DNA from: a virus
Lineage: Duplodnaviria > Caudoviricetes
Reading direction: 5' to 3' (one strand)
Virus record (IMG/VR): IMGVR_UViG_3300032237_000390
Location: 1-62,236 of that record
Length of the DNA stretch: 62,236 bases
Translations under genes and position numbers: made by a program
The notes under the pieces: model-generated
What the model saw: the letters and a program-made list of their open reading frames with translations, nothing else
Database searches by the model: none
What the model was told of the DNA's origin: nothing
Shown here: in pieces, positions 1 through 62,236 of the stretch
How the letters are laid out: every line of letters begins with the position of its first letter
How positions within the stretch are numbered: the first letter of the stretch is position 1

Positions 1-123
1 GCCAATTATTCAGGAGGGCAAGAAACTTCTTATTGTGGCTCCTTGCCATAATAACGTGGTGAATACATTGGCAGCGAATGTGATGAAGGGGAACCTTAAG
101 ATATGTGCGATACCGCCACCAAA
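1..123. repeat. Terminal direct repeat (assembly circularisation overlap), copy 1
   Basis: 1-123 is identical to 62114-62236, and the GroEL frame continues across the join. Confidence 0.97.
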
Positions 124-871
124 TTTTGGTTACAAGCAGCACGAGCTGATGCAGGACCTTGCGGTTTCAGTTGGAGCTACTTACTTTAGCGAGAGAACCG
201 GTGACGATTTGTCACACGTTGAATACACCGACTTAGGTCATGCGGCTAAAATAATAGTATCAAAAGATAAGACCATCATCCTCAAGTCCAACTTGAGGGT
301 AGATGAAGAAAAAATTAAGGAAAGGGTAAACCAATTATGGGAGGCTCATGCCGCTGCTAAGAGAAAGAACGATAAAGATTTTTTGTTAGAACGCATAGCA
401 TCTTTGACGGGTGGCATTGGTGTTATCTTTGTTGGCGGTAATACTGACCTTGAGCAGAAGGAGTTGTATGATAGGGTTGACGATGCGGTATGTGCAGTGA
501 GGTCAGCGTTAGAGGAGGGTATTGTTCCCGGAGCGGGCAAGGCACTATTTGAGAGCACGGTAGACATACAAGAAGATTGGAGTGAGGAGAAGAAGGTTGC
601 AGCAAGGGTGCTTAATGGAGCGATGGTTTCACCACTAAATCAAATACTTGAGAACGCAGGGATAAAGTTTGGTGATGTTTACCCTCTAACCTGCAATGCA
701 GGTGATGGGTATAATCTAAAGACAGGAAAGTTTGGAGACCTTATAAAGATGGGTGTAATCGACCCACTGAAGGTGACACGAAGTGCCCTTCAGAATGCGG
801 TCAGCGTAGCAACAACCATCCTTAGTACAAATGCAATTATCACTATGGCAAGAACCTATGATGCTAAGTAG
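1..871 (+). CDS. groEL: Chaperonin GroEL, C-terminal part
   Basis: ERIASLTGG, DRVDDAVCAVRSALEEGIVPGAG, GVIDPLKVTRSALQNAVS; in frame with the 61386 start; no GGM tail. Confidence 0.97.
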   Translation, partial: PIIQEGKKLLIVAPCHNNVVNTLAANVMKGNLKICAIPPPNFGYKQHELMQDLAVSVGATYFSERTGDDLSHVEYTDLGHAAKIIVSKDKTIILKSNLRVDEEKIKERVNQLWEAHAAAKRKNDKDFLLERIASLTGGIGVIFVGGNTDLEQKELYDRVDDAVCAVRSALEEGIVPGAGKALFESTVDIQEDWSEEKKVAARVLNGAMVSPLNQILENAGIKFGDVYPLTCNAGDGYNLKTGKFGDLIKMGVIDPLKVTRSALQNAVSVATTILSTNAIITMARTYDAK

Positions 872-55381: not shown

Positions 55382-55424
55382 GGACTGCATCGGGAGTCGA
55401 ACCCGAACTACGACCATCGCAGTC
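55382..55424 (-). ncRNA. tRNA-like minihelix A (acceptor stem + T-arm, no anticodon arm)
   Basis: GACUGCG-(11 nt)-UCGGG-UUCGACU-CCCGA-UGCAGUC-C. Confidence 0.75.
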
Positions 55425-55713: not shown

Positions 55714-55767
55714 CACACGGGGAGGGAATCGAACCCTTCACTTGACAGACCATTCTGCACCCCGTGT
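55714..55767 (-). ncRNA. tRNA-like element B (acceptor stem, mini D-arm, T-arm, no anticodon arm)
   Basis: ACACGGG-GU-GCAGA-AUGG-UCUGU-CAAGUGA-AGGG-UUCGAUU-CCCU-C-CCCGUGU-G. Confidence 0.7.
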
Positions 55768-55808: not shown

Positions 55809-56915
55809 CTATGCACCATAACTCAATACTTCGTGCTCTGCGAACCAATCATTACATCCACTGCAATGGTAGTTACAGAACCCATCATGAACAAGGTCAT
55901 GAAAACAATTTATACAGACGGGCTTCTCATTTTTCACATCAAAGTCATTGTCATCGTCAATAAACTCGTCAAGATACAACTGCCTACCAATAATTCTCTC
56001 AGCCTCCAACACCTCCTCTTGGTCTTCCTCCCACCACTTCTTAGTCTCAGCCTCCTTGATAAAGCTGAACGTCTGACTATAACTCTCGTGAACCTCTTGC
56101 CCTCTGTACTTCTCGGCAAGATTAAAGTATATCCAACACGTCAACACCCTTCCGTCTTTCATCTTGATAGGTATCTGCTTTCTACAATACCAATGAGGGT
56201 GACCCTCAAGGGCATCCAACTCATTTACCTTGTCATCAGTAACCTTAAACACATCAACCTCAACATTGTGCCCGATACCCTTCATATCGAGGAGGTAAGG
56301 CAACCCGCTAATGATAAGCGGGTAATTGTCTTGCGTCTTACCTTTGCCAACATGCTTAGATGAGGTCAAGAACCGATTGTAATTGCTGTATCCCTTCTTA
56401 AGGGTACCATACACCGCAACCAAATTATCCTCAAGAACATTATTCTTGCTATACCAAACACCATCACGCTGTGTCCACAACTCTTTGTTGTATATCTGAT
56501 ACGTCCGATTGCGTGTATTGATTGTCACGAACCTACTATTATGCTTCTCCAACTCCTTCTTCCACTTGTGTCTTGGCACTTTACCCAATGACTCAGCAAG
56601 CACCCTTGAGTCACTCTTCTTGGCATCCCCCAACCCGAAGATTGTGCCGTTCATCATGAGCCACTCATTGCGATTCGCACCGCATCTGAAGGGGTGGGTA
56701 TTCTCTTTACCAATTGCACCGATTGTAGCATAGCGAAAGTGAGCAATGAACGGACGCTCTGTATCCAACACTGCGTGCTGAGATGATTTGTGATAGGTAA
56801 CCTCAAAGGTATCCAACCAAATAATTCCCAACCCATGTGGATTGATTCTGCCTGAGGTCTTGGCGACCTCCTTGGGTAGCAGTTTACCCTTCTGCTTGAT
56901 AATAATTACACACAT
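55809..56915 (-). CDS. Class II (Ntn) glutamine amidotransferase fused to gamma-glutamylcyclotransferase (AIG2-like), with C-terminal Zn finger
   Basis: N-terminal MC, NPHGLG, HFRYAT, HPF, NG; then VAVYGTLKKG...LD.LEG.P..Y.R; CINC...CSGC. Confidence 0.9.
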   Translation of the reverse strand: MCVIIIKQKGKLLPKEVAKTSGRINPHGLGIIWLDTFEVTYHKSSQHAVLDTERPFIAHFRYATIGAIGKENTHPFRCGANRNEWLMMNGTIFGLGDAKKSDSRVLAESLGKVPRHKWKKELEKHNSRFVTINTRNRTYQIYNKELWTQRDGVWYSKNNVLEDNLVAVYGTLKKGYSNYNRFLTSSKHVGKGKTQDNYPLIISGLPYLLDMKGIGHNVEVDVFKVTDDKVNELDALEGHPHWYCRKQIPIKMKDGRVLTCWIYFNLAEKYRGQEVHESYSQTFSFIKEAETKKWWEEDQEEVLEAERIIGRQLYLDEFIDDDNDFDVKNEKPVCINCFHDLVHDGFCNYHCSGCNDWFAEHEVLSYGA

Positions 56916-56934
56916 TTGATTTGATTTGTGAGCA

Positions 56935-56950
56935 GTGTCTTTGAAGACAC
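56935..56950. repeat. 16-bp near-palindrome, copy 8 (between promoter and start codon)
   Basis: Exact GTGTCTTTGAAGACAC. Confidence 0.95.
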
Positions 56951-56978
56951 AGAACTCGATTAATGAACTGATAATGCA

Positions 56979-57010
56979 CGAAGATAATACAATAATTGAA
57001 CACTACCAAA
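56979..57010 (-). promoter_or_regulatory. Bacteroidota sigma-A-like promoter
   Basis: TTTG-N20-TATCTTCG on the - strand. Confidence 0.6.
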
Positions 57011-57011
57011 T

Positions 57012-57167
57012 TTATTTTTTGGCACTGAACCTACTCCGATTCAGATTTGGATGAAGGTATAAGTACTTGTAGTAAGCCTTCTCGACCGCCTCCCACTTGG
57101 TATGGGCAACGATTAGACAGACCAACTCTTTGTCATAATACACCTTGAATAAGTGATTTGATTCCAT
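57012..57167 (-). CDS. Hypothetical 51-aa protein
   Basis: MESNHLFKVYYDKELVCL...SAKK*; AATCA leader directly after hammerhead 1. Confidence 0.65.
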   Translation of the reverse strand: MESNHLFKVYYDKELVCLIVAHTKWEAVEKAYYKYLYLHPNLNRSRFSAKK

Positions 57168-57180
57168 TGTGATTTGATTT

Positions 57181-57249
57181 GGTTAAGACGGGGTTCACAC
57201 GGTTTCCCGTGTGATTCCGTTTCGCTGAACTACAGCTCATCAGTTAACC
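57181..57249 (-). ncRNA. Hammerhead ribozyme HH1 (type I)
   Basis: GGUUAA-CUGAUGA-GCUG(UAGUU)CAGC-GAAA-CGG...CCG-UC^UUAACC; predicted cut 57187/57186. Confidence 0.93.
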
Positions 57250-57430
57250 TTCCCACCTCGATTGCCAACTCAAGACCCCACTCAAGGGCATCATTGATGT
57301 CAGCATAGCTTTGACATAAGCTTTCACTCCCGTCATCATGTAGCTTGTAAACATCGAACAACCCGCTTGCGAATACTTCCTTTGCTTTGTCGGTTACTTC
57401 TAACCATACGAACCCGTCTTTAATTGTCAT
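57230..57430 (-). CDS. Hypothetical 66-aa early protein
   Basis: Probable start is ATG 57430; ends ...RLTDEL* inside HH1. Confidence 0.7.
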   Translation of the reverse strand: MTIKDGFVWLEVTDKAKEVFASGLFDVYKLHDDGSESLCQSYADINDALEWGLELAIEVGRLTDEL

Positions 57431-57459
57431 TTTGATTTGATTTATTTGGTTTAAAAATA

Positions 57460-58014
57460 TTATGCAATGCAATACATCTCAGATAAAACATTCACCGCCT
57501 TACTTACGTCCTCGGGGCGAACAACTATAAAGTAATTTGGTTTCCACTCACCCGCTGTGTCCGATTCCATTCTCCTGTTGGGTATCCCTTCCCTGTTCAA
57601 CACCTCTTCAACCCCTTCCAACGCACTCTCATTGTGGGTATGGAACACTGAGTAATTTGGGGTATCAAAATTCCCCGTCAATCTACTCGTTACATCAAAC
57701 TCCACCTCGTTCGATACATTCTCCACCGCACCATCGAAGTCAGCAACATTAACCCACTCACCATTCCACGCACGTCCATTGAGATACCATTGCCCCCTCA
57801 CTTGTTGGATTCGCACCCCTCTGAGCCCGTTTAACCTTTCCTTGGTAGTTTTACTTTCCCACCCCGCATTGGTGACCCATAGCCCATCAGCTCTATTCTC
57901 AGCTATCTTGTTGTCGAACAGCCACAGCGAACGTCCATCCGTTCTGCTGTTGTCAATTTTTTGTGTGATGCCATGCTCGAAGGCAAAGGCAATTTCACGT
58001 GTGATTTTCCGCAT
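57460..58014 (-). CDS. Hypothetical early protein (GW.S.TTKERLN motif)
   Basis: ORF track; AATCA leader. Confidence 0.8.
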   Translation of the reverse strand: MRKITREIAFAFEHGITQKIDNSRTDGRSLWLFDNKIAENRADGLWVTNAGWESKTTKERLNGLRGVRIQQVRGQWYLNGRAWNGEWVNVADFDGAVENVSNEVEFDVTSRLTGNFDTPNYSVFHTHNESALEGVEEVLNREGIPNRRMESDTAGEWKPNYFIVVRPEDVSKAVNVLSEMYCIA

Positions 58015-58026
58015 GTGATTTGATTT

Positions 58027-58078
58027 GGTTAAGACCCCCCGAAGGGGGTTTCGTTCATTCAGAACTCATCAGTTAACC
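58027..58078 (-). ncRNA. Hammerhead ribozyme HH2 (type I)
   Basis: GGUUAA-CUGAUGA-GUUC(UGAAU)GAAC-GAAA-CCCCC(UUCG)GGGGG-UC^UUAACC; predicted cut 58033/58032. Confidence 0.95.
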
Positions 58079-58228
58079 TCGATTGATTCGCTTTACCATA
58101 CCGCCCCATGATTCCCGACCCTTACAGCCATATCCTTGGGTAGCACATGATGACAAGGTAAGACCAAAGATGAACAGACAAAGGATGATGATTAAGTAAA
58201 AGACGTTCAGTGAATTTGAATTTTTCAT
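58073..58228 (-). CDS. Small lipoprotein (51 aa)
   Basis: MKNSNSLNVFYLIIILCLFIFGLTLSSC-ATQGYGCKG...; hydrophobic signal plus LSSC lipobox. Confidence 0.7.
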   Translation of the reverse strand: MKNSNSLNVFYLIIILCLFIFGLTLSSCATQGYGCKGRESWGGMVKRINRG

Positions 58229-58311
58229 ACTAATTTGTTTTTTTTGGGTAAAATAGAATTGGTTACAAAAAAAGATAAGACGAATGAAAAGAAAATAATT
58301 GCTAAAAACAT
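58225..58311 (-). CDS. 28-aa membrane peptide
   Basis: MFLAIIFFSFVLSFFVTNSILPKKNKLV*; AATCA leader; ATGA overlap with the next gene. Confidence 0.55.
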   Translation of the reverse strand: MFLAIIFFSFVLSFFVTNSILPKKNKLV

Positions 58312-58363
58312 AGTGATTTGATTTTTTGGTTTCCGATGGGGGTCACACGCTCTGTGTGTAATT

Positions 58364-58412
58364 CCGTTTCGCTCTTATGAGCTCATCAGCAAGGGCAATT
58401 ACCCTTGGACGG
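58364..58412 (-). ncRNA. Hammerhead ribozyme HH3 (type III)
   Basis: CCG-UC^CAAGGG(UAAUUG)CCCUUG-CUGAUGA-GCUC(AUAA)GAGC-GAAA-CGG; predicted cut 58408/58407. Confidence 0.92.
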
Positions 58413-58440
58413 TTACACAGCCCCGAAGGGCTGTGTAATT

Positions 58441-58456
58441 GTGTCTTCAAAGACAC
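58441..58456. repeat. 16-bp near-palindrome, copy 9
   Basis: Exact GTGTCTTCAAAGACAC. Confidence 0.95.
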
Positions 58457-58461
58457 CCCCC

Positions 58462-59334
58462 CTAAAGAAAGGGGTTGATGTCTTGATGGTATTCACCCTT
58501 CAGTATGTATTTCCTGAAGTGCCTTGCCAATTTCAGAACCTCATCCACCTTCTCAACCTCACCATTGTACATTGATAGAAGGATAGGGGTGATGCTCTTC
58601 AAAAACGTTTCGTGCGAGCCATTGGGCTTGTTAATACTGAAATCAACAAGCTCATGAAATAGCTCGTAACGTCTCATCATCTGCTTTACACTCTCAAAAC
58701 GAGACGGCAAGCGGAATTCAAGACACCCACCCTTTACAAGGGCTGTTTGATACTTAGTGTGCCAATTGGTGGTCTCATTGTAGCCCTGCAGACGCTTGTT
58801 GTAACCGCAATAGCTGTTGCCTAACCTTTTACGAAATAAGGCTAAAATAACCCCGCAATTGCCCCTCACAGCCTTTCTGAGGTCATCACCACTGAGCCCA
58901 TCAACAGCGATGGTGATATGACCCCCGCAACGCTTATCAGAAGGGCTGTAGCGGTCATCGATAATCTTCTCAGCTTTGTGCATTAGGTCGAAAACCTTAG
59001 TCCGCCATGTGCTCTGAGGGAGCAAAGGTAGAATGTGAGTCACAGCCTCATATCCACATGACCCATCATTTTCGAACCCGCAGAAAAGTTCATACTCCTT
59101 AACTGCACCTCGGTGCAGTGAGTTTTTCTCGACCTCGAAACCGATGGTGAACTTAGAACGATAGTCACCGAAAGATTCGATTAGGTTACCCCTTTGAGCC
59201 TTCTTAAGGTTCACAATGTCTGAGCTCTTTGCACCACGTCCGAGGTGGTTAGGTGAGGGCTTATGGTGGTAAGATGCCACCCGACCCCTTGAGGTTTCGC
59301 CCGTTAACGTGTACTGAATTCCTTTGTCTTGCAT
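58462..59334 (-). CDS. Putative amidoligase (COOH-NH2 ligase type 2, glutamine-synthetase-like fold)
   Basis: IGFEVE, DGS.GYE.VT.IL, CGGHI, LEFR; probable start is ATG 59334. Confidence 0.8.
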   Translation of the reverse strand: MQDKGIQYTLTGETSRGRVASYHHKPSPNHLGRGAKSSDIVNLKKAQRGNLIESFGDYRSKFTIGFEVEKNSLHRGAVKEYELFCGFENDGSCGYEAVTHILPLLPQSTWRTKVFDLMHKAEKIIDDRYSPSDKRCGGHITIAVDGLSGDDLRKAVRGNCGVILALFRKRLGNSYCGYNKRLQGYNETTNWHTKYQTALVKGGCLEFRLPSRFESVKQMMRRYELFHELVDFSINKPNGSHETFLKSITPILLSMYNGEVEKVDEVLKLARHFRKYILKGEYHQDINPFL

Positions 59335-59350
59335 AAAAGTGATTTTTTTT

Positions 59351-59410
59351 GGTTTATACAAGTGTCTTTGAAGACACTTGTTTCGGGCATTCAGCCCTCG
59401 TCAGTAAACC
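59351..59410 (-). ncRNA. Hammerhead ribozyme HH4 (type I); stem III contains 16-bp element copy 10 (59362-59377)
   Basis: GGUUUA-CUGACGA-GGGC(UGAAU)GCCC-GAAA-CAAGUGUCUU(CA)AAGACACUUG-UA^UAAACC; predicted cut 59357/59356. Confidence 0.93.
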
Positions 59411-60024
59411 TATTGCGGAGCAATTGCATCAAGCAAAAAGTTGATTGCCCCTCTTATTTGCTCACCCGTATTGGTAGTTTTAATTTGCCCTGCATCGTCT
59501 ATTCGCACTGAAATATTCCCATCAGGATGCTTGAAGGTCAACGTGAAAATTGTAGTTGAGCGGGTTTCCACCTCAGCCCCTTCTTCGCCCTCGCCACCTT
59601 CAGAGGCGGTCTCTTCACTTGCCTTTGCGAATTTCAATAACCCTTCGACCGACCTATTTGGTTCGTCACCGCTCCTTTCCACCTCATCGCATTTTGTCTT
59701 AAATGTTTCCACCACCTCAGCAGATACATTCGCCACCTTTACCAATTTGTAAAAAAACGATTTTTGCCACCCGAAAACTTTTTGACCGAATTGCTCAGTC
59801 GTCCATGTGATACCCTCTTCTCTTAATTTAGCCTTTCCACCTTCTGAATTAAACCACTCAAAAGCTTTGCGGACATGTTGAGACAAGGCAAGAGATTGCT
59901 CGAACTTCTTCTTCTGACCATTTTGAATGGTACGTTGAATACTTCTAATTTCGCTCAGATTCAATGCAGACGCTACGTCTGTCTGTCTGAGAAAGGCTGA
60001 TTCAATTGCTAATAAATTGCTCAT
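59410..60024 (-). CDS. First early gene; possible HTH-containing protein
   Basis: WTTEQFGQKVFGWQKSFFYKLVKVA resembles an HTH; first gene after the early promoter. Confidence 0.75.
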   Translation of the reverse strand: MSNLLAIESAFLRQTDVASALNLSEIRSIQRTIQNGQKKKFEQSLALSQHVRKAFEWFNSEGGKAKLREEGITWTTEQFGQKVFGWQKSFFYKLVKVANVSAEVVETFKTKCDEVERSGDEPNRSVEGLLKFAKASEETASEGGEGEEGAEVETRSTTIFTLTFKHPDGNISVRIDDAGQIKTTNTGEQIRGAINFLLDAIAPQ

Positions 60025-60062
60025 AATGTAGATTTTTTGTTTAGTGATTGATTAATTTGAGT

Positions 60063-60095
60063 GCAATATATGTTTATTTTTCTGACAATTCCAAA
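60063..60095 (-). promoter_or_regulatory. Early promoter, Bacteroidota sigma-A-like
   Basis: TTTG-N21-TATATTGC on the - strand, upstream of ATG 60024. Confidence 0.55.
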
Positions 60096-60247
60096 TATTT
60101 ATGCAAGTATTTTTTTAAATAGGCAATATTTTTTTCATTTCAGCGTAAATGAAGGGCTTTACAGCGGGTTGATTAACGTAGAATGTATGGGAGCAGACGA
60201 ATAGGACGGGGGCTGAGCCCTTTCGCTTTGCCCTTTCACTTTGAATT

Positions 60248-60263
60248 GTGTCTTTGAAGACAC
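60248..60263. repeat. 16-bp near-palindrome, copy 11
   Basis: Exact GTGTCTTTGAAGACAC. Confidence 0.95.
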
Positions 60264-60531
60264 TCAATGATAATCAACGGGTTATGGGGGTTACCTAAAG
60301 TAAAACTTTAGTTAGGGGGCGGGTCACATTGATACGAAACGGGGGCGGGGCGGTCCCGTTCAATGATGGAAAAGTCAAAAAATTGCTGAGGGCTGAGCGA
60401 ATTCGGACCCCCACCCCCTTCAAAAAAGGTCGTTTCCGCCTGACGGCTCGGCTCGCAGAACCGCTATGTAGCCCCCACACTACTATTGTCTAAATAAAAT
60501 TTATACGTACCTTTATACCAAACTATATAGT

Positions 60532-61309: not shown

Positions 61310-61320
61310 ATCATTAAGAA

Positions 61321-61345
61321 AGCCATCCTTCGGGATGGTTTTTTT
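61321..61345 (+). terminator. Intrinsic terminator
   Basis: AGCCATCC-TTCG-GGATGGTT-TTTTT. Confidence 0.88.
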
Positions 61346-61362
61346 ATGTCGCAAATATTATC

Positions 61363-61370
61363 TAAGTTTG
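61363..61370 (+). promoter_or_regulatory. Bacteroidota-type -7 box for groEL
   Basis: TAAGTTTG upstream of ATG 61386. Confidence 0.55.
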
Positions 61371-61385
61371 TGAAAATTAAATCAA

Positions 61386-62236
61386 ATGGAAATAGGATAC
61401 TCACCAAAAGACTTACGTTTTGGAGAAGAGGGCAGGCTAAAACTTATCAAAGGTATTAATGCTATTGCAAGTGCTGTTAAAAGCACTTTAGGTCCTAATG
61501 GTAATACTGTTGTTATTGAGTCGCCCAATCACACCCATGGTATAACCGTCACAAAAGATGGTGTAACTGTAGCAAAGGCAGTTGACCTTTTAGACCCCGT
61601 AGAGAACATTGCAGTCAAAATGATGAAGGAGGCAGCCGACCGTACAGCTACTGCTGCCGGAGACGGTACAACGACCGCTATTGTCCTCACAGAGGCATTG
61701 GTTGAGATGGGTATCTCTGAGATGAAGCCAACTCATAACAGGACTGAGGTTTTGCGTAGTATGTTGGAGCTATCAACAAGTGTGGTGGAGAGCCTGCGTT
61801 TACGCAGCAAAAAACTCTCAGGCAGCATGTTAACTGATGTGGCAACTATTAGTGCGAATAATGACAGGGAGTTGGGAAAGATTATAGCTGAGGTATACAA
61901 AGAGGTTGGAAAGAATGGTATTGTAACTGTAGAGCGTTCACAGACATCGGAGACCTATGCCGAGACCACTATGGGGTTGAAGATAGACAGGGGCTATTTA
62001 AGTCCGTTGTTTATCAATGACCAAAAGAAAGACGAGTGTGTATTTGAGGACACTATGGTATTGGTTGCTGACATTGAGATAGGTAACATTCTTAATATTG
62101 AGCAGATACTCAAGCCAATTATTCAGGAGGGCAAGAAACTTCTTATTGTGGCTCCTTGCCATAATAACGTGGTGAATACATTGGCAGCGAATGTGATGAA
62201 GGGGAACCTTAAGATATGTGCGATACCGCCACCAAA
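61386..62236 (+). CDS. groEL: Chaperonin GroEL, N-terminal part (continues across the junction to 871; ~532 aa in total)
   Basis: Absent from the ORF track. ATG at 61386 reads MEIGYSPKDLRFGEEGR...VKSTLGPNG...VTKDGVTVAK...AGDGTTTA (GroEL ATP-binding motifs). Confidence 0.97.
   Translation, partial: MEIGYSPKDLRFGEEGRLKLIKGINAIASAVKSTLGPNGNTVVIESPNHTHGITVTKDGVTVAKAVDLLDPVENIAVKMMKEAADRTATAAGDGTTTAIVLTEALVEMGISEMKPTHNRTEVLRSMLELSTSVVESLRLRSKKLSGSMLTDVATISANNDRELGKIIAEVYKEVGKNGIVTVERSQTSETYAETTMGLKIDRGYLSPLFINDQKKDECVFEDTMVLVADIEIGNILNIEQILKPIIQEGKKLLIVAPCHNNVVNTLAANVMKGNLKICAIPPP
62114..62236. repeat. Terminal direct repeat (assembly circularisation overlap), copy 2
   Basis: Identical to 1-123. 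Confidence 0.97.

Follow-up and report, generated by a model that had tools for sequence, protein, structure and literature searches.

Gene content of the locus

The window, that is, the whole 62-kb stretch of viral DNA that was analysed (62,236 nt), is a complete podophage genome, and the host of this phage is probably a member of the Bacteroidota. The source phage is freshwater or marine. The features described here belong to a leftward gene block, which contains small genes and then replication and recombination genes, and they are found near its beginning, where hammerhead ribozyme motifs lie between the genes on the coding strand (Table 1). About 230 nt of AT-rich non-coding DNA precede the 204-aa gene. 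The 290-aa protein has homologues encoded at 46 viral loci, with 54–69% identity. The junction upstream of the 66-aa gene (57431–57459) contains an A-rich leader only, with neither a ribozyme nor any other processing element, so some cistrons in the cluster would not be separated. A promoter and a terminator were sought for the block and none could be placed. The packing and order of the genes suggest that the block is read as a single transcript, and it is from the gene order that the operon may be called early.

Table 1. Positions of genes, ribozymes, leaders and structured elements in the leftward block
Feature	Position	Strand	Remarks
204-aa gene	59410..60024	-	upstream of hammerhead 1; no family match
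Hammerhead 1, type I	59351..59410	-	stems I/II/III 6/4/10 bp; GUA
Leader after hammerhead 1	59335..59356	-	22 nt, A-rich, no Shine-Dalgarno; ATG at 59334
290-aa gene	58462..59334	-	hammerheads 1 and 2 on either side; no family match
16-nt palindrome copy	58441..58456	-	GUGUCUUUGAAGACAC; 5 nt past stop of 290-aa gene
11-bp hairpin, UUCG loop	58413..58438	-	abuts stem III of hammerhead 2
Hammerhead 2, type III	58362..58414	-	stems I/II/III 7/4/4 bp; GUC
Two overlapping small ORFs	58073..58311	-	between hammerheads 2 and 3
28-aa ORF	58311-58225	-	hydrophobic
51-aa ORF	58228-58073	-	lipoprotein-like, judged by eye; no family match
Hammerhead 3, type I	58027..58078	-	stems I/II/III 6/4/6 bp
Leader after hammerhead 3	58015..58032	-	18 nt, UUAACCAAAUCAAAUCAC; ATG at 58014
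184-aa gene	57460..58014	-	after hammerhead 3; Pfam Kyano_Gp96, phrog_554, function unknown
66-aa gene	57230..57430	-	last codons extend into hammerhead 4
Hammerhead 4, type I	57181..57249	-	stems I/II/III 6/4/4 bp and distal 8-bp helix
Leader after hammerhead 4	57168..57186	-	19 nt, UUAACCAAAUCAAAUCACA; ATG at 57167
51-aa gene	57012..57167	-	after hammerhead 4
Candidate second tRNA-like element	55715..55767	-	after stop of 368-aa GGACT gene
tRNA-like minihelix	55383..55424	-	same block, further down; 7-bp acceptor-like stem

Anatomy of the four hammerheads

Our own motif scan, which covered both strands and demanded at least 4 bp in stem I, 3 bp in stem II and 3–4 bp in stem III, found exactly four hammerheads in the 62-kb window, three of type I and one of type III, all on the minus (coding) strand. 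These are the same four that the initial annotation had placed on that strand at 59351–59410, 58364–58412, 58027–58078 and 57181–57249. When the sequence was shuffled 300 times with its dinucleotides preserved, 15 matches were obtained, a mean of 0.05 per window with a maximum of three in one shuffle. In all four copies three helices surround a correctly placed CUGA(C/U)GA and GAA core, the G10.1–C11.1 and A15.1–U16.1 pairs are present and the cleavage triplets (GUA, GUC, GUC and GUC, in order) conform to N-U-H; the full cores that had been claimed, with CUGANGA, GAAA, the A15.1–U16.1 pair and a GUC or GUA triplet, are there in each. The arrangement is that of the clustered phage hammerheads, with four motifs within 2.3 kb, on the coding strand and at gene junctions, presumably in one transcript.

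Hammerhead 1 has GGUUUA/UAAACC as stem I and GGGC/GCCC as stem II, its long stem III includes the 16-nt palindrome of the genome, and its first G is the final base of the TAG stop codon of the 204-aa gene. In hammerhead 2, stem III is formed by CCG/CGG and an A-U pair, and stem II by GCUC/GAGC. Hammerheads 3 and 4 share the stem I GGUUAA/UUAACC. In the former, stem II is GUUC/GAAC, stem III is capped by a UUCG loop and the UAA in stem I is the stop codon of the 51-aa ORF upstream; in the latter, stem II is GCUG/CAGC, the 4-bp stem III is followed by an internal loop and then by the 8-bp helix with a GAAA loop, and the upstream 66-aa ORF stops within the stem II loop, at 57230. Each motif thus sits at a gene junction, as had been annotated and as the ORF ends confirm: the upstream ORF ends 1, 6 or 20 nt inside the type I motifs and 49 nt ahead of the type III motif. 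The predicted cuts fall after positions 59357, 58408, 58033 and 57187 (59357/59356, 58408/58407, 58033/58032 and 57187/57186 for hammerheads 1 to 4), and would release fragments of 949, 375 and 846 nt; these lengths, and the distances of 22, 18 and 19 nt between the type I cuts and the next ATG, were recomputed with the same values as before.

Predicted folds and model scores

The minimum-energy fold is the exact three-way junction for hammerheads 1 and 3, two of the four, with a z of −5.9 for hammerhead 1. For hammerhead 4, stems I and II and the distal helix form. Hammerhead 2 folded alone forms stems I and II and not its 4-bp open stem III, which is likewise absent from the minimum-energy fold of the whole intergenic region. 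This 162-nt stretch is highly structured over its whole length (z −6.6).

The Rfam families used for comparison were RF00008 (Hammerhead_3), RF00163 (Hammerhead_1) and RF02275 (HH9). The Rfam search proposed in the initial annotation gave a divided answer: there was no match in the window at the curated gathering scores, and in E-value mode only Hammerhead_3 stood out, at 58361–58415, with 38 bits against a cut-off of 48.5 (E 8e-6). HH9 reached 17.5 bits at 58018–58081 against a cut-off of 52, and Hammerhead_1 gave no listed match in the window in this mode. The shortfall is explained by the Rfam models having been built from other lineages and is not a biochemical criterion; routine Rfam annotation would overlook these four copies. 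Two models built from related viral copies, R1 for type III and R2 for type I, score the four window copies at 40–75 bits. R2 gave 50.5 bits (E 9e-12) on hammerhead 1 and 39.7 bits (E 1e-8) on hammerhead 4, both copies being outside its training set, and its alignment of hammerhead 4 ends at 57192 with a shifted register; hammerhead 3 (75.4 bits with R2) and hammerhead 2 (67.7 bits with R1) are copies inside the training sets. With the filters off, neither model found another site above 14 bits in the window. The lack of any match at an Rfam gathering score would fit the idea that the motifs arose by chance or are decayed relics that have lost their cleavage activity. We consider this idea extremely improbable, since four motifs were found against 0.05 expected, their cores are intact, independent models recognise them with E values of 1e-8 to 1e-12, and relatives conserve both their pairing, through covariation, and their position.

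Fast cleavage at cellular Mg2+ needs a tertiary contact between stems I and II, through their loops or a pseudoknot. The loops are conserved: that of stem II in type I copies is U-N-A-R-U, with U1 in 98/98, and near-invariant positions are found in loops I and II of type III. A comparison of the type I loop II with the flanks revealed no convincing tertiary contact, pseudoknot or covarying partner, and the single strong signal resembles shared ancestry inside one sub-lineage. Given this result and the open 6-bp stem I, the speed of type I cleavage at cellular Mg2+ is uncertain.

Leaders and conserved hairpins

Leaders without a Shine-Dalgarno sequence had been described as what the ribozymes expose. 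Such leaders do follow the type I cuts, but the A-rich AAAUCAAAUCA leader precedes at least ten minus-strand genes, seven of which have no type I cut site, and it is neither made by the ribozymes nor specific to them. After a type III cut, the downstream RNA would begin with the entire ribozyme. The palindrome found past the 290-aa gene is a recurrent companion of type III copies: of 80 type III hammerheads in relatives, 46 have its hairpin at most 25 nt upstream.

Conservation in related viruses

The stems were said to differ between copies and to keep their pairing, a pattern that extends to the relatives. Among 76 distinct type III copies, pairing is kept in 97.4% of the cells, and changes on both sides affect 12 of 16 pairs (306 cells); among 37 type I copies the figures are 99.3% and 9 of 16. 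The copies were collected by a scan that demands pairing, and these percentages are in part built in; the informative part of the covariation is the variety of pair types together with the controls in which partners were slid. Sliding the partners by 1–3 columns left 32–42% paired in type III, and 23–42% over both types together, against 97–99% observed. The compensatory changes touch all three stems, and the core columns are invariant in both sets.

A survey of related phages had also been suggested. At the 46 loci with a gene for a homologue of the 290-aa protein, there were 111 matches to R1 and 13 to R2, all of them (124/124) on the gene strand. Five complete relatives contain 2–4 type III copies per genome, within 1.9–3.7 kb and on one strand in each genome, and in the other viral loci with at least two copies all copies share the same strand (27/27). 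The placement with respect to the reading frames is similarly regular. In type I, the distance from the cut to the ATG has a median of 23 nt (interquartile range 21–24; 106 copies), with an ORF start at most 40 nt away in 102 of these copies, and the upstream stop codon lies within ribozyme positions 1–13 in 63 of 103, being the UAA of stem I in 32 and the core UGA in 17. In type III (80 copies), the median distance from the 3' end to the ATG is 21 nt and the upstream stop is found at a median of 31 nt ahead of the ribozyme.

A stop codon inside stem I or the core implies that a terminating ribosome must unfold the ribozyme, which raises the question of whether the motifs are conditional regulators, with cleavage set by the timing of upstream translation, Mg2+ or another signal instead of constitutive processing. 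The cut might also tune or shut down the downstream gene through decay of the 5'-OH RNA, rather than stabilise it, in the manner of the glmS ribozyme, whose 5'-OH product is the degraded one. The initial annotation had suggested that such ends may resist decay. The overlap with the stop codon, seen in those 63 copies and in two of the three type I copies of the window, speaks for conditional control, and cleavage that is slow or conditional would be in keeping with the short stem I of type I, with no tertiary contact detected, and with the weakness of stem III in hammerhead 2; regulated cleavage of phage hammerheads was raised by Perreault et al. (PMC3088659). However, the same junction can be filled by a type III hammerhead or by a minihelix (see below), both with the stop well upstream, so the overlap with the ribosome is not a constant feature, and the ribozymes are minimal and uniform, with no visible ligand-binding extension. 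Cleavage governed by such signals is, in our judgement, rather unlikely.

tRNA-like elements at the same junctions

Of 45 assessable loci, 40 have a type III hammerhead at the junction after the 290-aa gene, as counted by eye from the match table against the locus coordinates. In the remaining five (L019, L022, L041, L046 and L051) a tRNA-like minihelix takes its place, and L041 and L046 have a minihelix also at the junction equivalent to that of hammerhead 1. The junction before the 290-aa gene carries a type I hammerhead in the window, type III in three loci, a tRNA-like element in two and only a hairpin in others. A complete relative with only two hammerheads has three minihelices in the same block, and the four complete relatives with 3–4 hammerheads have none there.

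The minihelices are composed of an acceptor plus T stack of 11–13 bp, a GUUCGANUC T-loop and a GG-containing bulge. GUUCGA-UC is invariant among them and AUGGU is present in most bulges. They resemble tRNA in the coaxial stack of around 12 bp, the 7-nt T-loop of tRNA consensus and the D-loop-like GG. Eleven of the 12 pairs change on both sides, and 20 minihelices were found on the gene strand and four on the opposite one, against around 2.75 in shuffles for both strands combined. Two of the seven that were folded prefer a different structure. The window itself contains an element of the same kind as these hammerhead replacements, the minihelix at 55383..55424, in which the acceptor-like stem is accompanied by a bulge of 11 nt that includes AUGGU and by a stem of 5 bp capped by a GUUCGACUC T-loop; a 19-nt leader and an ATG follow. 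The R3 model scores it at 44 bits, the copy being inside the training set, and its best Rfam match is mascRNA-menRNA, below threshold. The candidate second element, which combines an acceptor-like stem of 8 bp and a T-arm with an additional hairpin, is recognised by R3 in the T-arm only (15.5 bits, E 0.04). ARAGORN found no tRNA in the window nor in nine related loci scanned.

The tRNA-like swap at a hammerhead junction suggests, on comparative grounds, that the cut itself is what matters. The earlier interpretation is partly supported: the swap and the gene-strand bias lend comparative support to cleavage between cistrons as the function under selection. The ribozymes could instead be carried along by a small intergenic cassette, mobile or recombining, that spreads within and among phage genomes, and be kept as harmless, cutting mRNA without benefit to the phage. 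This would agree with the differing occupancy of a given junction between relatives, with identical copies within one contig (for example two in L089), with the identical stem I and leader of hammerheads 3 and 4, with the presence of the GGUUAACUGAUGAG form in at least 120 viral stretches, and with self-cleaving ribozymes being common in selfish elements, as noted by Perreault et al. (PMC3088659). Against it stand the core and pairing, maintained with many compensatory changes in more than 100 diverged copies, the absolute strand bias, the tightly fixed spacing to stop and start codons, and the fact that one junction carries either cleavage module in 45/45 relatives; neutral passengers would decay, and not be swapped for a different element of similar predicted effect. 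We therefore regard passengers as improbable.

The exchange of elements bears equally on the proposal that pairs of ribozymes excise the intervening RNA and that its ends are then ligated, perhaps by a host enzyme of the RtcB type, to give circular or spliced products like those of retrozymes and viroid-like RNAs. Four tandem ribozymes would indeed free the three pieces given above with ligatable ends, and RtcB was found in a control Bacteroides genome. The phage genome, however, encodes neither RtcB nor an AAA_33-type kinase, and in the available account of Perreault et al. (PMC3088659) circular or spliced products of clustered prophage hammerheads were sought and none found. Moreover, the RNase P/Z products of the interchangeable tRNA-like elements would have a different end chemistry, which argues against a need for ligatable ends and leaves excision and ligation very unlikely indeed.

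Discussion

The four motifs are probably functional hammerheads that serve as cutting modules between cistrons in the first ~3 kb of the leftward block. In phage T7, RNase III cuts the polycistronic early mRNA between cistrons, and the upstream mRNAs end in hairpins. The logic of cutting between cistrons would be the same here, but T7 relies on a host protein enzyme acting on long double-stranded stems, whereas the window RNA would cut itself and its relatives would offer a tRNA-like substrate; the end chemistry differs as well. TRNA-shaped cutting signals for RNase P and RNase Z are known from mitochondrial tRNA punctuation and from the MALAT1 mascRNA. The phage minihelices are likewise tRNA-shaped elements between or after coding parts, but they measure only ~40 nt, have no anticodon arm and are putative RNase P/Z substrates.

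The core idea of phage hammerheads that process transcripts is already published: Perreault et al. 2011 (PMC3088659) reported hammerheads in clusters in prophages and suggested that these process long phage transcripts to mRNAs the length of a gene. In vitro, they saw the predicted cleavage in three tandem sets, one each from Clostridium scindens, Azorhizobium caulinodans and Agrobacterium tumefaciens (PMC3088659). Both those clusters and the window have several hammerheads of mixed type on one strand, flanking single genes or short blocks. As far as the clusters are portrayed in the parts of that report drawn on here (PMC3088659), the window differs in belonging to a lytic-type podophage lineage, apparently of Bacteroidota, in having a stereotyped cassette whose stop codon falls within stem I or the core and whose A-rich leader, of ~20 nt, is fixed, in the conserved 16-nt palindromic hairpin that accompanies its hammerheads, and in the tRNA-like minihelices that replace them at orthologous junctions. 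In the haloarchaeal viruses HF1 and HF2, according to the same source (PMC3088659), an early gene of a polycistronic transcript has a hammerhead 13 nt before its start codon, and a 5' end has been mapped at most 3 nt from the cut site. There a single ribozyme with a variant core sits at the transcript's 5' end, and the archaeal virus comes from a high-salt setting, whereas the window has four with consensus cores between internal cistrons. In fungal and plant RNA viruses (PMC13725137, NAR 2026), type I hammerheads occur in UTRs; the 5' end that had been predicted was verified in vivo, and the ribozyme was proposed to take part in translation initiation. There too, in the sections consulted of that article, a short intergenic UTR is taken up by a type I hammerhead whose cut lies a few nucleotides ahead of the next ORF's start codon, but those are eukaryotic RNA viruses with cap-independent translation and the window is a DNA phage with bacterial, Shine-Dalgarno-less translation (PMC13725137).

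In the mechanism that we propose, the selected unit would be a cassette made of a stop codon, a hairpin, a cleavage module, an A-rich leader of ~20 nt and an AUG, in which a hammerhead of type I or type III or a tRNA-like minihelix may act as the module; for the minihelix, the cut would presumably be made by RNase P and/or RNase Z of the host. A type I ribozyme, beginning at or over the upstream stop codon, would fold after its 3' strand is transcribed and cut 18–22 nt ahead of the next AUG. The upstream mRNA would then keep its stop codon and have the compact ribozyme at its 3' end, which would carry a 2',3'-cyclic phosphate, and the downstream mRNA would begin with a 5'-OH on a short A-rich leader with no Shine-Dalgarno sequence. 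A type III ribozyme would cut directly past one or two terminal hairpins, so that the upstream RNA ends in a hairpin, and its whole body would stay as a structured 5' end before the downstream leader. For the phage, the cut may bring uncoupled stability and translation of neighbouring cistrons, as well as protective structured ends.

Four hammerheads in the leftward gene block

Four complete hammerhead ribozymes were found on the minus strand, both by direct reading of the sequence and by a motif scan of the two strands of the window, which returned precisely these four and no others (hammerheads 1–4, numbered in the leftward, coding order). The same scan gave 15 matches in total over 300 dinucleotide-preserving shuffles, equal to 0.05 per window. 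The coordinates and strand agree with those of the initial annotation, whose predicted fragment sizes (949, 375 and 846 nt) and cut-to-AUG distances (22, 18 and 19 nt) were also reproduced, as was its remark that the stems vary among the copies and yet keep their pairing, stem II being GGGC/GCCC, GCUC/GAGC, GUUC/GAAC and GCUG/CAGC. The minimum-energy fold of hammerheads 1 and 3 is the hammerhead junction; in hammerhead 4 stems I and II and the distal helix are formed, and hammerhead 2, folded alone, forms stems I and II and leaves unpaired a weak stem III of 4 bp. One junction in the cluster contains no cleavage module. The Rfam check proposed for these elements gave zero matches at gathering scores in the whole window. 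Hammerhead 2 reaches 38 bits with Hammerhead_3 (cut-off 48.5; E 8e-6 in 4 kb and 1.3e-4 in the whole window), hammerhead 3 reaches 17.5 bits with HH9 in E-value mode, and hammerheads 1 and 4 are absent from the matches in that mode, so that all four would escape routine Rfam annotation. The only addition from the E-value run of the whole window was a sub-threshold STnc370 match at 61313-61378.

The record is rated 100% complete and placed in the direct terminal repeat class (IMG/VR annotation), and it is a permuted circle, since the phage-encoded GroEL gene is divided over its two ends. Genes for groEL and a 10-kDa co-chaperonin are also annotated in the closest GenBank genome. After its small genes, the leftward block encodes a gamma-glutamyl cyclotransferase-like protein, a Sak-like annealing protein, an exonuclease, a primase/helicase and a helicase. 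Similarity to named DNA sequences is weak, with 60-80% identity covering no more than 12% of a 7.2-kb query; the nearest are a freshwater “Caudoviricetes sp.” genome and 68 records of Flavobacterium podophages (Elemovirus). The start regions of the window are A-rich and carry no Shine-Dalgarno sequence, which we take to fit a Bacteroidota host. ARAGORN called no tRNA and no tmRNA in the window.

Coordinates of the ribozymes, minihelices, palindromes and main genomic features (window positions unless an accession is given)
Feature	Position	Strand	Description
Hammerhead 1	59410-59351	-	type I, open stem I
Hammerhead 2	58414-58362	-	type III
Hammerhead 3	58078-58027	-	type I, open stem I
Hammerhead 4	57249-57181	-	type I, open stem I
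Clear minihelix	55383-55424	-	gene junction, leftward block, downstream of hammerhead cluster
Candidate minihelix	55715-55767	-	gene junction, leftward block, downstream of hammerhead cluster
Palindrome copies (16 nt each)	2535, 16394, 23456, 38411, 48193, 52261, 55627, 56935, 58441, 59362, 60248		
Terminase, portal protein, virion proteins, three giant proteins	about 1-44.6 kb	+	gene annotation
Leftward block	about 60.1 kb down to 45.1 kb	-	opens with small genes of unknown function
GroEL gene (phrog_5725), phage-encoded	61386-62234 + 35-868	+	two pieces at opposite record ends
elemoB_14-3B type I copy	NC_062741.1 17213-17270	-	model match
elemoB_14-3B type III copy	NC_062741.1 19025-19079	-	model match

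Hammerheads in related viral loci

Homologues of the 290-aa protein, encoded between hammerheads 1 and 2, were found in 46 viral loci at 54-69% identity. Our scan of these loci made 102 raw matches to the hammerhead motif, all on the gene strand. In an alignment of 76 distinct type III copies 97.4% of the cells pair, and in one of 37 type I copies 99.3%; both were gathered with a scan that demands pairing, so that the weight falls on how varied the pair types are and on the slid controls. Changes on both sides of a pair occur in 12 of the 16 type III pairs (306 cells) and in 9 of the 16 type I pairs, and sliding the partner by 1-3 columns lowers type III pairing to 32-42%. A mutual-information scan of 98 type I copies found no convincing pseudoknot or other tertiary partner for loop II; the lone strong pair, between loop position 5 and the first tail base, was rejected because it seems to mark a sub-lineage whose stem I is longer.

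Covariance models were built from the two alignments (R1, type III; R2, type I) and run with filters off. R1 matched hammerhead 2 only (67.7 bits) and R2 matched hammerhead 3 (75.4 bits), both copies being part of the respective training sets, whereas the R2 matches to hammerhead 1 (50.5 bits, E 9e-12) and hammerhead 4 (39.7 bits, E 1e-8) concern copies outside the training set. Neither model gave a further match above 14 bits, and the window thus has four hammerheads only. Across the 46 homologue loci there were 111 matches to R1 and 13 to R2, on the gene strand in 124/124 cases. Five complete relatives each contain 2-4 type III copies, spread over 1.9-3.7 kb and on one strand per genome, and no type I copy by R2. 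A cluster near the head of the gene block is therefore a family trait. It is not universal among relatives, since neither R1 nor R2 finds a match at E <=0.01 in MW202828.1, the closest GenBank genome.

The type I class was also followed with a search string of 14 nt common to hammerheads 3 and 4 (stem I and core), a gap and CGAAAC. This was found in at least 120 viral stretches. In 80 loci fetched among the matches listed, 89 of 101 occurrences of the string are complete type I hammerheads by our scan, and wherever a locus has more than one copy, all of them lie on a single strand (27/27 loci). The class, which Rfam-based annotation passes over entirely, is common in viral contigs: this single 14-nt form occurs in at least 120 stretches there, compared with 13 in 185,579 species genomes. 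Of the species-genome records, five bear what we take to be Bacteroidota names, including Paraflavitalea, the sole complete isolate genome; most of the others are short contigs from metagenome-assembled genomes.

The cultured Flavobacterium phage vB_FspP_elemoB_14-3B (Elemovirus) contains one type I and one type III copy in its block of small genes. At locus positions 2095-2176 of this phage, the annotated gp69 start (2133) falls within the type I hammerhead; the real start looks like the ATG at 2176, 24 nt past the predicted cut, and the TAG that overlaps stem I seems to close a small unannotated ORF. A different arrangement is seen in an IMG/VR contig of 82,750 bp (L090), where six type I hammerheads lie on a single strand and each is followed by the repeat AAAAGUSAGGYGCASACUAUAACAGGC instead of an ATG. 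This suggests another use of the same ribozyme class, perhaps the processing of a repeated non-coding RNA array.

tRNA-like minihelices at the same junctions

The junction that follows the 290-aa gene was inspected by eye, by comparing model matches with homologue coordinates, in 45 of the loci (the truncated L050 was left out). A type III hammerhead begins within ~70 nt after the gene in 40 of them, and the other five (L019, L022, L041, L046 and L051) contain at this place a tRNA-like minihelix of ~40 nt. It is composed of an acceptor-like stem, a bulge of 9-12 nt, usually with AUGGU, and a T-arm whose loop reads GUUCGANUC, the stems summing to 11-13 bp. A further minihelix is found in L041 and L046 at the junction equivalent to that of hammerhead 1. 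Scanning for the minihelix detected 20 copies along the gene strand and, on the opposite one, 4 weaker copies, compared with ~2.75 on both strands summed in mononucleotide shuffles. Both-side changes occur in 11 of 12 pairs in an alignment of 17 sequences, and the drawn structure is the minimum-energy fold in five of the seven that were folded. ARAGORN calls none of the minihelices a tRNA in nine related loci and the window, and the best Rfam match to the window elements, mascRNA-menRNA at 22.6 bits, lies below the cut-off. The complete relative with just two hammerheads has three minihelices in the same block, and the four with 3-4 hammerheads have none.

Two unrelated elements, hammerhead and minihelix, therefore fill one slot of the same cassette, and the sole property predicted to be common to them is an endonucleolytic cut. 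In our view this sharing of a slot is the best evidence now at hand for cutting as the probable function.

Stop codons, leaders and start codons

The distance from the type I cut to the next ATG-initiated ORF has a median of 23 nt (IQR 21-24; 106 copies in the loci with the search pattern), and an ORF starts within 40 nt of the ribozyme 3' end in 102 of the 106. On the other side, an upstream ORF of 40 codons or more terminates close to 103 of the 108 distinct type I copies. Its stop codon lies within ribozyme positions 1-13 in 63 of the 103, being the UAA of the GGUUAA stem I in 32 of these and a UGA of the CUGAUGA core in 17. In the window, the stem I UAA of hammerhead 3 serves as the upstream stop, the first G of hammerhead 1 is common to the upstream TAG, and the ORF before hammerhead 4 extends into stem II. 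For 80 type III copies in the homologue loci, the median gap is 31 nt from the upstream stop to the ribozyme and 21 nt from the ribozyme to the ATG (ATG within 40 nt in 65/80). In both types, therefore, the AUG is separated from the structured element by ~17-21 nt of A-rich RNA without structure, irrespective of the position of the cut. Between hammerheads 2 and 3 there are two tiny overlapping minus-strand ORFs, one (58225-58311) encoding a hydrophobic peptide of 28 aa and the other (58073-58228) a 51-aa product with no family match, in which a signal peptide and a lipobox-like LSSC were recognized by eye.

The near-identical leaders might be thought to be made for, or by, the ribozymes. This was rejected, because the same leader precedes ribozyme-free genes: the motif AAAUCAAAUCA is found ahead of at least 10 minus-strand genes of the window, and a type I cut before three only. 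Between 53590 and 59334 (minus strand), leaders of the AAAUCAAAUCA(A/C) type, without Shine-Dalgarno sequence, lie 0-5 nt ahead of the ATGs of many genes, with or without a ribozyme. The leaders are thus the general translation start region of the leftward block.

Palindromic hairpins and transcription signals

A 16-nt palindrome, GTGTCTT(CA/TG)AAGACAC, has 11 exact copies in the window against 0.07 expected, about seven of them at gene junctions and about four within long ORFs. One junction copy forms stem III of hammerhead 1. In the relatives the palindromic hairpin is found ahead of many type III hammerheads and minihelices; a half-site lies within 25 nt upstream of the ribozyme in 46 of 80 type III copies of the homologue loci, and several minihelices stand directly 3' of the same hairpin that also precedes type III hammerheads. 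Candidate roles for it are protection of RNA 3' ends, termination, and binding of a phage protein, as DNA or as RNA. Hammerhead 2 lies in an intergenic region of 162 nt (58309-58470, minus strand) that is very highly structured (-64.4 kcal/mol, z -6.6); a GGGGG/CCCCC closing helix surrounds the ribozyme together with three hairpins, of which one is the palindrome and another has 11 bp and a UUCG loop. The downstream part of this region, CCCCCAUCGGA, is common to two related loci (L026 and L027). Upstream of the leftward block, in an otherwise AT-rich region, a GC-rich gene-free stretch (60290-60480, minus strand) adjoins the palindrome copy at 60248 and may represent a structured RNA or have a regulatory role.

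No promoter was located for the leftward block with the two patterns scanned. The Bacteroidota-type pattern gave 5 matches against 4.0 expected, none of them upstream of the block, and the sigma-70 pattern gave 15 against 15.8. A weak TTTG-N21-TATATTGC, seen by eye ~50 nt upstream of the 204-aa gene that precedes hammerhead 1, is not relied on. Terminator-like sites number 17 against 6.1 expected, and most of them coincide with hairpins of the ribozymes and junctions. A search of sequencing runs for 56900-60100 listed no RNA run. Of the enzymes for end healing or ligation, RtcB (PF01139) and the AAA_33 kinase (PF13671) were looked for, and neither is present in the phage genome.

Discussion

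We propose that, in these podophages of ~60 kb, hammerheads of types I and III and minihelices of ~40 nt would be interchangeable modules of one punctuation cassette, in which a self-cutting RNA is swapped for a presumed substrate of RNase P/Z at the same junctions; on the comparative evidence, we regard this proposal as evenly balanced between right and wrong. The order of the cassette is stop codon, 16-nt palindromic hairpin, cleavage module, A-rich leader and AUG. The leftward block would be transcribed as one or a few long RNAs, and each module would cut between cistrons. With a type I module, the cut would leave the folded ribozyme, bearing a cyclic phosphate, at the 3' end of the upstream mRNA, and the downstream mRNA would begin with a 5'-OH, 18-22 nt ahead of the AUG. 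With a type III module or a minihelix, the upstream mRNA would end in the palindromic hairpin and the downstream one would bear a structured 5' element, followed by the leader. The likely gain would be the independence of neighbouring cistrons in stability and translation. As the ribozyme often contains the upstream stop codon, its folding must compete with translation of the upstream gene, and this leaves room for a regulatory reading, with conditional cleavage.

Clustered phage hammerheads are already known. Perreault et al. (2011; PMC3088659) describe prophage genes as often flanked by multiple hammerheads, report in vitro cleavage for three tandem sets, and propose the processing of long phage RNAs to mRNAs the length of an operon or a gene; circular or spliced products were looked for in that work and not found. 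The same paper describes a hammerhead of a halovirus that lies 13 nt upstream of an early start codon and agrees with a mapped 5' end (PMC3088659). A 2019 review calls the biology of bacterial and phage self-cleaving ribozymes largely elusive (PMC6765202), and a 2026 paper, which describes type I hammerheads before ORFs of RNA viruses, notes the type from bacteria and phages (PMC13725137). Our search of the main texts of the articles covered found no report of hammerheads in Flavobacterium or other Bacteroidota phages and none of an interchange between hammerhead and tRNA-like element. The cassette and the hammerhead/minihelix swap may be new. Ribozyme insulators are used as synthetic parts in the design of genetic circuits, and the compact phage unit, which runs from the stop codon through ribozyme and leader to the start codon, is a natural analogue of them.

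The window is an unusually clean case, with four consensus ribozymes within 2.3 kb of a complete phage genome. The family context is more useful, through the absolute placement by strand and junction, the fixed spacing to stop and start codons and the replacement series at one orthologous junction; from these together we argue that an RNA cut separating cistrons is probably the selected function. The cultured Elemovirus with both hammerhead types makes bacterial hammerhead biology directly testable. If the proposal is true, it would be the first comparative evidence that selection on phage hammerheads keeps the cut itself, and these podophages would be the bacterial-virus counterpart of mitochondrial tRNA punctuation.
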